Positions 52,127-64,000 are shown, counted from the first letter of the stretch. The stretch is DNA of 64,000 bases from Escherichia coli (GCF_050920415.1 NZ_CP169309.1); one strand, 5' to 3'. The notes: generated by a model from the letters alone, not told the origin. Numbers and translations: made by a program.

Positions 52127-52387
52127 TTAATTCTGAGGTAAAGGCAAACTCATCTGATTGTTTCCCCTGTGTGAAGCTGGCAGCTCATGCCACGGGATAC
52201 CTTCTGAAGAGTGAACGCCGGAGGCGTGTTTTGATGTGAATTTATGGAAAGCTTCCAGTGTTGAGAAGCATACGCCGCATTCCAGATTGTTACACTGGTA
52301 ATACTTTTGCCGCACGGTGTTTGAATCATTTTCCGGACGACTGGTGCGGATACGGGCAGATGCGCCACAAAGCGGACAACGGAACAT
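52127..52387 (-). CDS. ogr: P2 Ogr-like zinc-finger late-gene activator
   Basis: 86 aa, MFRCPLCGASARIRTSR...YYQCNNLECGVCF; next to gene D. Confidence 0.7.
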   Translation of the reverse strand: MFRCPLCGASARIRTSRPENDSNTVRQKYYQCNNLECGVCFSTLEAFHKFTSKHASGVHSSEGIPWHELPASHRGNNQMSLPLPQN

Positions 52388-52429
52388 AGCGACCTCCCTT
52401 AACGTGGTGCTGCCGCTATTCTAAGTTGC

Positions 52430-53539
52430 TCACTCTGTTTCCGCTATCCATTCCGGGATTTTTGCTTCAAGCTCAAGCTGCGTGGTAAAGCCGCTGTTAT
52501 CAATGGTGTGCTCGGCTTTTGCAATAATCCAGTCCTGATTGTCGATGTCACTTTTGAAGCCTGTCACCGTGCCATGCATTTCGGGATAGAGTTCTGCACG
52601 TCCACGCGCCAGCGTGATGGAGAATGATGCGGCTCCGCGTTGTAGTTGCTGCCACTTTGCCGCCGCTGCGCGTCTTGCTGCCTGCTCGTTCTGATAAGTC
52701 TTGCGTAACACAAACACATTGCCTTCCGCGCCTTCCATATAATCACCTTCACGGCTGCTGCTTTTCTCCTTTTTGGGTTTTGGCGGTTTACGGCGTTTTA
52801 CGCTGACTTTTTTCTTTTTCCCGTAATTAAGATCAAGCCAGTAGGCGCGTACCCCCGTATACGCCTCGCGGTCAGCAATACGGAACTGATGGCGATCGCC
52901 GCTGCTGCGTGTAATGGCGAACGAGGGCAACGGCTGGCCCTGTGCGTTCACGCCACCACCTGGCATGATGAATAACAGATTGCCGCTTTTTACCGTGGTG
53001 ATTGCGCCCAGCATTTCCGCCATGCGCGTAAGGAAGGACATGTCGCTTTCTTCGGTCTGGTCGGCGTGGTCGATTTCAATATCCATCAGCATTTCGCTGA
53101 TTTGCGGTTTCAGGCCGTATCGGTGAGCAATTGCAGACACCACGCGTTCAACGGTCACATCATGCCAGGATACTTCGCGCTTGACGTTAAATTCATCCCG
53201 AAAATCTGCGCTTCTGGCTGAAATGGTCAGTCTGTCGGGCGGTCCTTCATGAGCAATTTCATCAACAATGTAAGTGCCTTTTTCTGTCAGCGGTTCTCCT
53301 TTCCAGCCAATGAGAACCGTCAGGCGCGCGCCCCGTGGCGGTAGCTGCAACTGACCATCTGCATCATCCAGCGTGATGGTGAGCTGGTCCGCCTCAAATC
53401 CCCGGTTGTCGGTCAGTGACAGGCTCATCAGGCGCTCTGCCACGCCTGACAGCGTTTTACCCTCCGCGAGAATATCAAAATCCGGCATTTTCACGGGGTC
53501 TGTGCCCTGACTGAGCAATTGCATGGTGGTGTCGGTCAT
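52430..53539 (-). CDS. P2 gpD-like tail protein (phage late control D family)
   Basis: ORF 52430..53671; start taken at MTDTTMQLLSQGTDPVKMPDF; overall resemblance to P2 gpD as recalled. Confidence 0.75.
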   Translation of the reverse strand: MTDTTMQLLSQGTDPVKMPDFDILAEGKTLSGVAERLMSLSLTDNRGFEADQLTITLDDADGQLQLPPRGARLTVLIGWKGEPLTEKGTYIVDEIAHEGPPDRLTISARSADFRDEFNVKREVSWHDVTVERVVSAIAHRYGLKPQISEMLMDIEIDHADQTEESDMSFLTRMAEMLGAITTVKSGNLLFIMPGGGVNAQGQPLPSFAITRSSGDRHQFRIADREAYTGVRAYWLDLNYGKKKKVSVKRRKPPKPKKEKSSSREGDYMEGAEGNVFVLRKTYQNEQAARRAAAAKWQQLQRGAASFSITLARGRAELYPEMHGTVTGFKSDIDNQDWIIAKAEHTIDNSGFTTQLELEAKIPEWIAETE

Positions 53540-53696
53540 CTGTTCCCTCCCTGTGCGGCATGGTCGCATGTGCGTGCGGAGGGGGTTACTGCTTTTTGTT
53601 GTCGCCGTGGCGGGAGAACGGCGCAGGGGTGAGATTACGCGCGTGGTGGGTGATGATTGTTGCCGAATCATTTAACGGATACAAGGGGCTGAAGCT

Positions 53697-61439: not shown

Positions 61440-61440
61440 A

Positions 61441-62922
61441 TCACCCTCCTATAGCAACATAACAGCCCGATACAGGATTTGCGGCAGTCGCTACGCTGGA
61501 AAAACCACGAAAGCCGCTTTTTGTGATTGCGGAGGCAGATAGTATTCCGGCACCCGAAGGTGTATGCCCCACGTGGCTGGCAACCATCACGTAGCACGCC
61601 GACGGAAAAGCGAAAGGGAAATTGTTTAAATATCCCGCATCATCCCCCAGACTTCCCCCAAACTGCCCCACTCCCCACTGGATAATAAGTGGTCTCCGAA
61701 CGCCAGAAATAATTAATGGAATTGCTACATACCCATTCACCAACATAGCGCCGGTTGTTGCGCCAGCCAGAGCCAATTCCCCCAAACCAAGGTAATCAAG
61801 AACTCCCTGAGTGCTGGTTTTACCAAGAATGGCACGTCCAACACTTGTCAACGCGGTTAACGCGGCACGATCTGCCCCTGTAAAATATGGGAGTTTATCT
61901 GCTGATGTAGCAAGCTCCGCCAGCGCCGTCAGGGTGGCATCCTTCGGTTGCTTACCCGCAAGCGCGTTAGTCATGGTGGTCGCAAAATTCGGGTCATTGC
62001 CCAGCGCCGCAGCCAGTTCGTTCAGCGTGTTCAGTGCATCAGGTGACGAATCTACAAGTGCGGCAATCGCGGCCATAACGAAAGCCGTGCTTGCGATCTG
62101 GGTACTATTAGTCCCCTGTGGCGCTGTTGGTGTTGTTGGCGTTCCGGTCAGTGCCGGGCTGTTTAATGGTGCTTTCTTGCTCGTTTCATCCATTACCGCC
62201 TTAACAGCTTTTGGTGTCGCTGCCAGCGTTTCAGACGTGCTGTTCGTGGCGCTACTGAGCTGAACAATCCCTTTTTGTGTAGTGGTGGCGTTCTGGGCGG
62301 TATATTTCCCGTTAGCCAGGTCATATGCAGCCTTAACCGCTTTCGGTGTTGCGGCCAGTGTTTCTGATTCACTGTTAATTGCACTGCTTAACTGAGTAAA
62401 ACCTTTTACGGTCAGCGAGGCGTCCGGGTGACGTCGTGACTGTTCGTGCTCTGATATTTTATCATCCACATATTTGCGGGTTGCCAGAACCACAGACGGG
62501 TCGATTTTCAGCGTGATGGCTTCGGTGTTCGTGACAACCAGAATCATGCGGATAGTCTGGGTGCGTCCACTGCCTTCCTGCAACTGCGGTTTGTACGTTT
62601 CCGGGCAGTTTGCCACCGCAATGAGTACACCTTCATCATCATAAAGCCCAATCTCACGGATCCAGAATCCTCCCTCGTTTTCAGGGATGATTTGCTCCGC
62701 AATAATCTGGCTCTGATTGTTAGGGTCAACACTCAGAAGATTCAGCGGTGCAATGCGTTTCTGGTTAATCAGTTTTGTTTGTGCAGGGTCTGGTGTTGGT
62801 AACACACCATTTGCATCACCAACGGCCATTTGCGTCAGATTCAGCTTACTGCCGAGCATCGTCGCGTTAGCCAGTCGTGCCGCGCCCTGATTAGTCAGAA
62901 TGGCGTAGTATTTCACTGTCAT
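61441..62922 (-). CDS. tail fibre protein (gpH-like)
   Basis: 493 aa; repeated ...SETLAATPKAVKA... segments; contains the crossover site near codons for LDYLGLGE. Confidence 0.85.
   Translation of the reverse strand: MTVKYYAILTNQGAARLANATMLGSKLNLTQMAVGDANGVLPTPDPAQTKLINQKRIAPLNLLSVDPNNQSQIIAEQIIPENEGGFWIREIGLYDDEGVLIAVANCPETYKPQLQEGSGRTQTIRMILVVTNTEAITLKIDPSVVLATRKYVDDKISEHEQSRRHPDASLTVKGFTQLSSAINSESETLAATPKAVKAAYDLANGKYTAQNATTTQKGIVQLSSATNSTSETLAATPKAVKAVMDETSKKAPLNSPALTGTPTTPTAPQGTNSTQIASTAFVMAAIAALVDSSPDALNTLNELAAALGNDPNFATTMTNALAGKQPKDATLTALAELATSADKLPYFTGADRAALTALTSVGRAILGKTSTQGVLDYLGLGELALAGATTGAMLVNGYVAIPLIISGVRRPLIIQWGVGQFGGSLGDDAGYLNNFPFAFPSACYVMVASHVGHTPSGAGILSASAITKSGFRGFSSVATAANPVSGCYVAIGG
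61777..61802. repeat. invertase crossover site (right), inside gene H; approximate
   Basis: Minus-strand sequence TTCTTGATTACCTTGGTTTGGGGGAA shares the core TTGGTTTGGG(A/G)GAA with the left site. Confidence 0.5.
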
Positions 62923-63527
62923 GCGTTTACTCTCAGATTATCAATTAAATGAATGGCCGGGGCAGGGAAATAATCCCCTTCGACAATAATGGACTCCGGG
63001 GTGTAGGGATAAACCGTCAGGGCATCGCCGTGATAGCATCCCGTACCAACGAAAATCTTTCCGTTCACACTCAGGCTGATCGCCAGCCCCGTCAGATGGC
63101 GACTTACTGGTTTTGCATCCGCAATAAGGCGCTCAAGTTCCTGATACATTTCATCGGTGATGCCCTGATCAAGTACTCCGACAACAATGCGAAATGTTCC
63201 TGGCTCCTCGTTGAGTTGCCACCACTCCTTTACTTCAATCAGGTAGCCGAGAGGCTCCACGGCTCTTCGCAGTGCGCTGATGGTCCCTTTGTGTCGGTGT
63301 ATCAGCCATGCATCACGAATCACCTGTCGCTTTGTCTCTTCCGGCCAGTTGCGATCCCAGCGGTCAACGGAAAACGCCCAGGCGAGATAAGGCAGCAGAT
63401 GCACCGGGCAGGTGTCCGGCGACCACAGCGTGTTGAGGTCTACCGGAATGTCTGTAATGCGTGTTCCGACGGCTTCGGCACAACGCATGAAATTGCTGGC
63501 TGATGGCGGTAACAGTGAATTACTCAT
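62919..63527 (-). CDS. P2 gpI-like baseplate protein
   Basis: ORF 62919..63560; start taken at MSNSLLPPSAS; ...LWSPDTCPVHLLPYLAWAFSVDRWD... resembles P2 gpI as recalled. Confidence 0.75.
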   Translation of the reverse strand: MSNSLLPPSASNFMRCAEAVGTRITDIPVDLNTLWSPDTCPVHLLPYLAWAFSVDRWDRNWPEETKRQVIRDAWLIHRHKGTISALRRAVEPLGYLIEVKEWWQLNEEPGTFRIVVGVLDQGITDEMYQELERLIADAKPVSRHLTGLAISLSVNGKIFVGTGCYHGDALTVYPYTPESIIVEGDYFPAPAIHLIDNLRVNA

Positions 63528-64000
63528 TACGCCCACCTTCGCTGATGGTGAATGACTCACAACGCGCCGCCTGTATGTCGCTGATGGCCATATTCTGTGT
63601 GGGTTCGATTATTTCCACGCGTTGCACACCGTGCACATGCAGTGCGGCAGCAATGGCGGACAACGCCACGTCCTGACCGATAAGCCCCTGTTCAGCCAGC
63701 CACTTCCTGAATGACGATTCCGCCGCGGCCAGAATAGGTTCGGATTCCGGACCGGGGTAAAAGTACAGTTTTGCATTCAGCCGCCATGTCACGATGCTGG
63801 CGCTCTGTACGGTCAGGCGGTCGGCCACCGGGCGGGTATCCTCTGCATTCAGAACGGCGCGAACGGTATTAAGCAACGCCTCCGTTGCTGTGCCGTCGCC
63901 TTCAGTGGACAGGATGGAAACCGTCACATTTGCCGGAGACGGACTGATAGCCCGCGCATCACGCACCAGACCGCTGGCGCTGCGGGCAAAATACTCGTAT
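63520..64000 (-). CDS. P2 gpJ-like baseplate assembly protein, 3' part only (gene continues beyond the window end)
   Basis: ORF open to the window edge; stop overlaps the gpI start. Confidence 0.65.
   Translation of the reverse strand, partial: YEYFARSASGLVRDARAISPSPANVTVSILSTEGDGTATEALLNTVRAVLNAEDTRPVADRLTVQSASIVTWRLNAKLYFYPGPESEPILAAAESSFRKWLAEQGLIGQDVALSAIAAALHVHGVQRVEIIEPTQNMAISDIQAARCESFTISEGGRNE

Follow-up and report, generated by a model that had tools for sequence, protein, structure and literature searches.

The window analysed here is a stretch of 64,000 nucleotides from an Escherichia coli genome (GCF_050920415.1, NZ_CP169309.1). The part at 43–50.8 kb matches the E. coli chromosome and carries tcyLN, sdiA, uvrY, uvrC and pgsA, followed by tRNA genes. 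From 50.85 to 64.0 kb the sequence appears to be 13 kb at the ogr end of a P88-like (Xuanwuvirus-type, Peduoviridae) prophage lying in the terminator of the glyW-cysT-leuZ operon. It contains homologues of the Peduoviridae tail and late genes ogr, D, FI, FII, E/E', T, U, H, I and J (Table 1), with ogr, D, tfa, H, I and J on the minus strand and the block from FI through FII, E/E' and T to U on the plus strand. The order that is canonical for P2, in which FI-FII-E-T-U-D-ogr is co-directional with V-W-J-I-H-G, is therefore not found here. We consider it very probable that the orientation of the FI–U block is a fixed, lineage-wide layout of P88-like phages, and neither a local rearrangement, nor a product of the neighbouring invertase, nor a defect; for the genes that it separates we propose late promoters that share one activator box.

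Genes were identified from open reading frames (ORFs), by tblastn against P2, P88, PhiSM, SEN4 and Kp4871-3, and with PHROG and NCBIfam profiles, whose assignments agree with the tblastn matches. For ogr, D, FI, E, U and H, NCBIfam matches were below threshold or lacking, and these genes were assigned by PHROGs and direct tblastn. The ORFs, tblastn and PHROG assignments bear out the strands given in a preliminary description of the window. Its statement that the P2 late genes are co-directional also holds: ten window proteins, compared with P2 by tblastn (E values from 1e-11 to 1e-137), fall on co-directional P2 genes, whereas their own genes are not co-directional. Similarly, blastn of the window against P2 places D, H and I/J on one P2 strand and FI on the other. 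The two intervals that had been named as breakpoints are true intergenic gaps, the first (53540–53696) being 157 bp between the start codons of D and FI and the second (59278–59303) 26 bp between the stop codons of U and the serine invertase gene, which does adjoin the right-hand breakpoint. With the FI–U block inverted relative to P2, D is indeed cut off from the F operon. Since what is described is an order of genes rather than a statistical signal, chance does not come into question.

Table 1. Features of the prophage and its chromosomal border (positions in the window; percentages are identities to the named phage).
Feature	Position	Strand	Evidence and remarks
tRNA genes glyW-cysT-leuZ	50484–50785		tRNA-Leu (leuZ) at 50699–50785
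Attachment-site core (prophage/host junction)	50833–50846		CACCTTCGGGTGGT; within the glyW-cysT-leuZ operon terminator hairpin
AT-rich variable cargo, ogr-side prophage end	50856–51675		Not common to P88 (blastn block with P88 starts at 51676)
Small ORF in cargo	51326–51607	+	Hypothetical protein in the annotation of E. coli SW070912 and 95-3192
hok/gef-family toxin gene, phage cargo	51797–51937	-	Also in P88
ogr, ogr/Delta-type zinc-finger late activator	52127–52387	-	99–100% P88/PhiSM, 36% P2 Ogr; PHROG 603 transcriptional regulator
D, tail gene, 369 amino acids	52430–53539	-	Intact, diverging from FI; 96–99% P88/PhiSM, 49% P2 D, full-length tblastn; PHROG 52
D|FI divergent spacer	53540–53696		157 bp; proposed bidirectional Ogr-dependent late promoter
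Candidate activator box	53594–53619	+	TTTTGTTGT-N12-AGAAC; TGT-N12-AGA core 53600–53617, centre ~53608.5
FI, tail sheath	53697–54881	+	98% P88, 46% P2 FI; PHROG 23
FII, tail tube	54881–55393	+	TIGR01611 over its cut-off; 96–98% P88/PhiSM
E, tail chaperone	55450–55824	+	PHROG 103
E' frame (-1)	55752–55988	+	Frames read directly from the sequence
T, tape measure	55939–58776	+	TIGR01760; 97% full-length match to P88/PhiSM
U, tail protein	58783–59277	+	Final gene of the inverted block; 100% P88 U, 46% P2 U; PHROG 76
Hairpin, 12-bp stem	59285–59314		Between convergent U and invertase; likely bidirectional terminator (terminator scan)
Serine DNA invertase (Pin/Gin/Cin/Hin type)	59304–59903	-	PHROG 125 DNA invertase, E 5e-99; 86–87% P88/PhiSM
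Invertible tail-fibre segment	59959–61802		~1.8 kb; inverted crossover sites 59959–59984 (TTTTCTTAAACGTTGGTTTGGGAGAA) and 61777–61802, gix-like cores
Silent alternative H C-terminus	59985–60440	+	
tfa'	60440–61033	+	Paired with the silent H C-terminus
tfa	61005–61439	-	
H, tail fibre	61441–62922	-	Constant N-terminal part and currently joined variable C-terminus; 74% P2 H over 352 amino acids; PHROG tail-fibre families
I	62919–63527	-	tblastn to P2, P88 and PhiSM I; coordinates transferred from the SW070912 annotation
J, start-distal part	63520 to past the window end (64000)	-	Coordinates transferred from the SW070912 annotation

The window thus differs from P2 in gene order and not in gene content. 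Ten homologous genes, at 33–74% amino-acid identity, are shared with P2 and the P2-type majority (phiCTX, RSA1 and phiE12-2 among others), and P2 likewise has Ogr-type zinc-finger late control, with ogr beside the phage attachment site (attP) and the integrase gene (int) across it. In P2, however, FI–U is co-directional with the rest and U overlaps D, whereas in the window D and FI point away from each other and U runs towards the invertase and tail-fibre genes. P2 also lacks an invertase and carries fun(Z) between G and FI.

Intact relatives, P88, PhiSM and SEN4 included, share the layout, which by the preliminary description's own test refutes the local rearrangement that it supposed. When positions 52000–64000 were compared by megablast with 50,697 phage records, Shae_phiSM, P884B11, 520873, 500465-2 and P88 matched on one strand, with 78–79% of the region aligned at 93–95% identity and gaps only in the variable part of the tail fibre. 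Local blastn gave a single unbroken block across both junctions with P88 (51676–59914, 93.5% identity) and with PhiSM (Shae_phiSM; 51722–59902, 95.6%), each of about 8.2 kb; both phages belong to the genus Xuanwuvirus. The annotated maps of both phages have D on one strand, the sheath, tube, E, T and U genes on the opposite strand, and the invertase and tail fibres back on the first, so that order and orientation agree with the window from hok/ogr–D through FI–U, the invertase and the invertible segment to H-I-J. P88 lacks the cargo at the prophage end, the variable regions of the tail fibre and the invertase have diverged further between the window and these two phages (63–87%), and the comparison covers the ogr-side third of the window element. 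On every feature testable here the element appears to be a member of the P88-like group, being collinear with P88 and P884B11 at high identity (93.5% to P88 over the 8.2-kb block). By the practice of the International Committee on Taxonomy of Viruses (ICTV), the genus threshold is about 70% identity over the full genome, and about 13 kb of the expected ~36-kb prophage lies within the window.

The same arrangement extends to more distant phages. In Salmonella phage SEN4 (Senquatrovirus) and Klebsiella phage Kp4871-3 (Reginaelenavirus), the tail fibres are followed by an inverted U-T-E-FII-FI block and then by D-ogr, although these phages are much more diverged from the window (56–68% identity in FI, 63–71% in D) and no match to the invertase was found in the DNA examined. 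Phages with this layout are viable. P88 was induced from E. coli K88, forms plaques with a burst size of ~65 and was seen under the electron microscope to have a contractile tail (PMC5285337); PhiSM, which Citrobacter rodentium sheds spontaneously, is likewise plaque-forming and establishes lysogeny in K-12 (PMC6456863); and SEN4 also produces plaques and shows a contractile tail in electron micrographs (PMC5261728). For PhiSM, the published morphology and the genome disagree: the virions are described as having long, non-contractile tails (Siphoviridae; PMC6456863), but the Shae_phiSM genome (OR565851) encodes a P2-type sheath, tube and baseplate.

Junctions were counted in 5426 complete E. 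coli genomes. The D|FI junction of the window is collinear in 1355 of these genomes and the U|invertase junction in 620. By comparison, an artificial P2-type junction, in which the start of D was joined to the end of U as in the P2 order, was found in 0 of the 5426, although 1412 genomes carry the pieces at 90% identity or above. The tail-fibre segment served as a positive control for the same test, and here both states were recovered, the artificial flipped junction in 26 genomes and the window orientation in 47. A junction present in 1355 genomes, with its P2-type counterpart in none, cannot be put down to a single strain or to faulty assembly, and the FI–U block is neither a switch nor an artefact.

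We surveyed phage genomes for the P2-type order by tblastn with U and D joined into one query. Adjacent, co-directional U and D occur in 383 of the 516 phage records with U/D homologues, among them Peduovirus and phages of Klebsiella, Yersinia, Burkholderia, Ralstonia, Pseudomonas (phiCTX), Mannheimia and Xanthomonas. Among 60 of these records, taken as a spread sample, those of P2 type all had at most 51% identity, and those with more than 60% D identity were all of the split D/U type. The canonical order therefore marks the P2-type genera and not all Peduoviridae. The simplest reading of these sequence comparisons would be a single ancient inversion in an enterobacterial branch of the family, with the P2 order ancestral. 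The inversion is fixed in the Xuanwuvirus, Senquatrovirus and Reginaelenavirus subclade and did not arise in this prophage. Hence, of the in-place inversion of ~5.6 kb that the preliminary description proposed, the inverted state relative to P2 and its end points stand, whereas its character as a local event does not.

As a layout, this arrangement is already known, since ICTV reference genomes carry it, as does roughly one in four complete E. coli genomes. Against this stands the literature: the layout goes unmentioned in the papers on P88, SEN4 and the C. rodentium prophage and in a 2026 survey of P2-like viruses, so that 'already known' refers here to the deposited reference genomes. The practical consequence is one of caution, as P2 is not the template for every P2-like prophage, and annotation pipelines or readers that call this layout rearranged or defective would be wrong. 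In this lineage a late operon has been split by inversion and yet is apparently under the same activator through one shared box. The shared-box promoter model is the only mildly new point.

That model concerns the D|FI spacer, which we infer to be a bidirectional Ogr-type late promoter. The spacer is near-identical in P88 and PhiSM and can be aligned with those of SEN4 (~157 bp, a similar length) and Kp4871-3. It holds the 14-base motif TTTTGTTGT-N12-AGAAC, found once in the 64-kb window (0.01 expected). P88 and PhiSM each contain two copies of the motif and no more, one in the D|FI spacer and the other in the O|P spacer, between the divergent head operons. At the aligned position, in the centre of the spacer, SEN4 and Kp4871-3 have a perfect TGT-N12-ACA, and both the box and its position are conserved across the three genera. 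TGT-N12-ACA is the consensus of the Ogr/Delta box in the P2 literature; the annotated activator sites of P2 coincide with TGT-N12-CCA boxes. The simple consensus is uninformative at its chance frequency, and the extended, lineage-specific motif was therefore used instead.

The geometry of the spacer resembles that of the P2 PP/PO region, in which one activator site lies midway between two divergent late operons. P2 has a single annotated activator site there (3057–3087), ~55.5 bp from the transcription starts of both P and O. From the centre of the box to the start codons, the distances are 69.5 bp (D) and 88.5 bp (FI) in the window, compared with 78.5 and 95.5 bp in the P/O geometry of P2. 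Spacers of this type span ~150–175 bp between start codons, with 154 bp for O|P in P88 and 157 bp for D|FI in the window. Conserved -10-like elements are located ~45 bp from the box centre, GATGAT towards FI and a GACCAT-like element towards D. The difference from P2 is that the window lineage would have a second such region, between D and FI.

We hypothesize that the inversion placed the late promoter of the F operon back-to-back with D, such that a single, central Ogr-type box would drive two divergent late promoters. Transcription of FI–U would begin near 53664 and that of D near 53554, possibly reading on into ogr; starts ~55 bp from the box centre would leave leaders of ~15 nucleotides for D and ~33 for FI. 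At the other end of the block, the hairpin between U and the invertase gene could terminate both the F-operon transcript and the converging invertase and tail-fibre transcripts. On balance we lean towards the view that the ancient inversion was tolerated because the near-dyad box of the F operon could serve both directions, making D|FI a second bidirectional Ogr-dependent promoter like that between P and O. If this is true, it would be a natural case of an operon that was split and then re-wired by the re-use of one symmetric activator site.

Several observations weigh against the shared box. Its core in the window (TGT-N12-AGA) has one mismatch to the P2-family consensus; exact TGT-N12-ACA matches in the window number 15, compared with 15.5 expected by chance, and none is in the prophage part; and the two -10 elements are weak. 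A possible, though distinctly less probable, alternative is that the layout is normal for the family, with D driven by its own activator-independent promoter or by some other control within the spacer. The mismatch in the core would fit this. A scan for sigma-70 promoters found as many matches as shuffled sequence predicts, and none of consensus type within the D|FI spacer; the lack of a -35 or -10 consensus promoter for D may be counted on the side of this alternative, but such a lack is also expected of activator-dependent late promoters. The shared box is preferred over separate control of D for three reasons, namely the restriction of the 14-base motif, in P88 and PhiSM, to the two spacers between divergent late operons, the agreement of the box-to-start-codon distances with the P/O geometry of P2, and the conservation of the box and its position across three genera. 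Separately, two overlapping sigma-70-like matches on the minus strand (52524–52567) lie within the 3' end of D, with the start codon of ogr ~140 nucleotides downstream. They may represent a promoter for ogr inside D, where the gap between D and ogr is 42 bp, compared with 81 bp in P2.

Because an invertase gene adjoins the right end of the block, the FI–U block might be a second, large substrate of the enzyme, either as a present-day switch or, historically, through a secondary crossover site. Gin/Pin-type enzymes occasionally use quasi-sites, which can also be counted in favour of this idea. We nevertheless regard it as very unlikely. The invertase has another, true substrate, the 1.8-kb tail-fibre host-range segment, which shows all the features of Gin, Pin, Cin and Hin systems: an invertase, inverted sites, alternative C-termini with their chaperones, and both orientations in nature. 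Here the expressed H C-terminus and tfa oppose the silent C-terminus and tfa', and by blastn E. coli SW070912, whose sister prophage occupies the same site, has the segment in the opposite orientation. As in Mu Gin, P1 Cin and e14 Pin, a serine invertase lies beside a segment with inverted 26-bp sites (together the module at 59304–61802), and inversion swaps the tail-fibre C-terminus and its assembly chaperone, with both orientations occurring in nature. This likeness holds for the 1.8-kb segment only, and not for the 5.6-kb FI–U block.

The preliminary description had suggested searching both junctions for inverted repeats or invertase-like sites, and nothing above chance was found there. In 52000–64000, the single meaningful pair of inverted repeats is formed by the tail-fibre crossover sites, which are also the only good crossover sites, with none comparable at the block junctions. 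The best inverted repeat spanning the FI–U block is 27 nucleotides at 74%, which is at chance level; inverted 26-bp sites are absent from the block ends; and a scan for gix cores found none in 53540–53696 or 59278–59303. Weak gix cores with one or two mismatches at 51003, 53397, 58113, 59922, 60443 and 62581 include none at a block junction and were taken as chance. The flipped state of the FI–U block is found in 0 of the 5426 genomes, against 1355 in the window orientation, whereas for the tail-fibre segment this test picks up both states; a present-day switch is refuted by this count. As for a historical role, SEN4 and Kp4871-3 have the inversion and no invertase match in the DNA examined. 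In addition, the invertase is 86% identical to that of P88 whereas the adjacent U is 100% identical, which indicates that the invertase belongs to a separately exchanged module.

A recent, in-place inversion within this prophage that parted D from the rest of its operon, and probably left the phage inactive, would account for the block being inverted relative to P2 with exactly the end points named above, and some sister prophages have indeed decayed. We consider this extremely improbable: viable phages and 1355 complete E. coli genomes have the identical arrangement and junctions of identical sequence, the P2-type junction occurs in no relative, the layout is common to genera that are only 56–71% identical in FI and D, and the genes of the block are all intact. 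In tblastn the proteins of D, FI, FII, E, T and U match those of PhiSM from end to end, and every visible tail gene is full length.

The preliminary description is correct that no integrase lies between the tRNA-Leu gene and ogr. However, its suggestion that the prophage may be defective does not follow from this, as the attP of the P2 family lies between ogr and int; in a prophage, ogr and int accordingly stand at opposite ends, ~35 kb apart. In P88, int is at record positions 108–1103, beside its attP, and the sister prophage in SW070912 spans ~36 kb, from leuZ to an integrase gene adjoining yecA. For the present element, the integrase is therefore expected beyond the window, at the other end of the prophage, and an intact prophage would repeat the attachment-site core CACCTTCGGGTGG next to int at that end. 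The window shows ~13 kb of this copy, and two sister prophages at the leuZ site are damaged in different ways: in 95-3192, T is interrupted by an IS3 element, beyond which lies a type I restriction-modification island, and in SW070912, a deletion has shortened D to 267 amino acids and a pseudogene fragment is present. Decay of this copy is thus possible, but the layout says nothing about decay.

An assembly artefact, in which a contig was mis-joined at ~53.6 and ~59.3 kb, has nothing in its favour beyond the unusual look of the region next to P2 and carries a negligible probability, the same junctions being present in independent complete genomes and in phage genomes.

At the left border of the prophage, homology to K-12 and to most other E. 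coli genomes ends at ~50854–50856, and the same left end lies beside leuZ in 569 of the 5426 complete genomes. The attachment-site core at the border (CACCTTCGGGTGGT) equals the published attP core of P88 (GCCACCCGAAGGTG) in 13 of 14 bases (PMC5285337). A second 13/14 match to the P88 core, GGCACCCGAAGGTG, is found at 61549–61562, within the variable C-terminal part of H; matches of this kind have a shuffled-window expectation of 0.00, and this one may be a coincidence.

Within the tail block, D starts with an ATG at 53539 preceded by a GGGAGGG ribosome-binding site, and the T reading frame is open from 55939, with the start annotated in relatives equivalent to 55974. A candidate -1 slippery heptamer, A AAT TTT, at 55767–55773 lies in the overlap of the E and E' frames, and would be the expected place of the conserved tail-chaperone frameshift. 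SW070912 and 95-3192 have an annotated GpE-family ORF at the corresponding position, and RefSeq relatives split E and E' into separate ORFs.

The cargo region between the border and ogr has small features of its own. A gix-like core with one mismatch, AAACCAAAGTTT, is located at 51003–51014, near the prophage end; it has no suitably placed partner and is probably due to chance. At gathering thresholds, Rfam reported only the three tRNAs in 50400–64000, with no Sok or other RNA family. The hok/gef gene matches the NCBIfam HokA profile weakly (E 6e-9, under the curated cut-off), and its counterparts are annotated as Hok/Gef in P88, SW070912 and 95-3192. The small ORF at 51326–51607 has an apparent N-terminal hydrophobic signal, and a strong bidirectional hairpin is present at 51683–51710.

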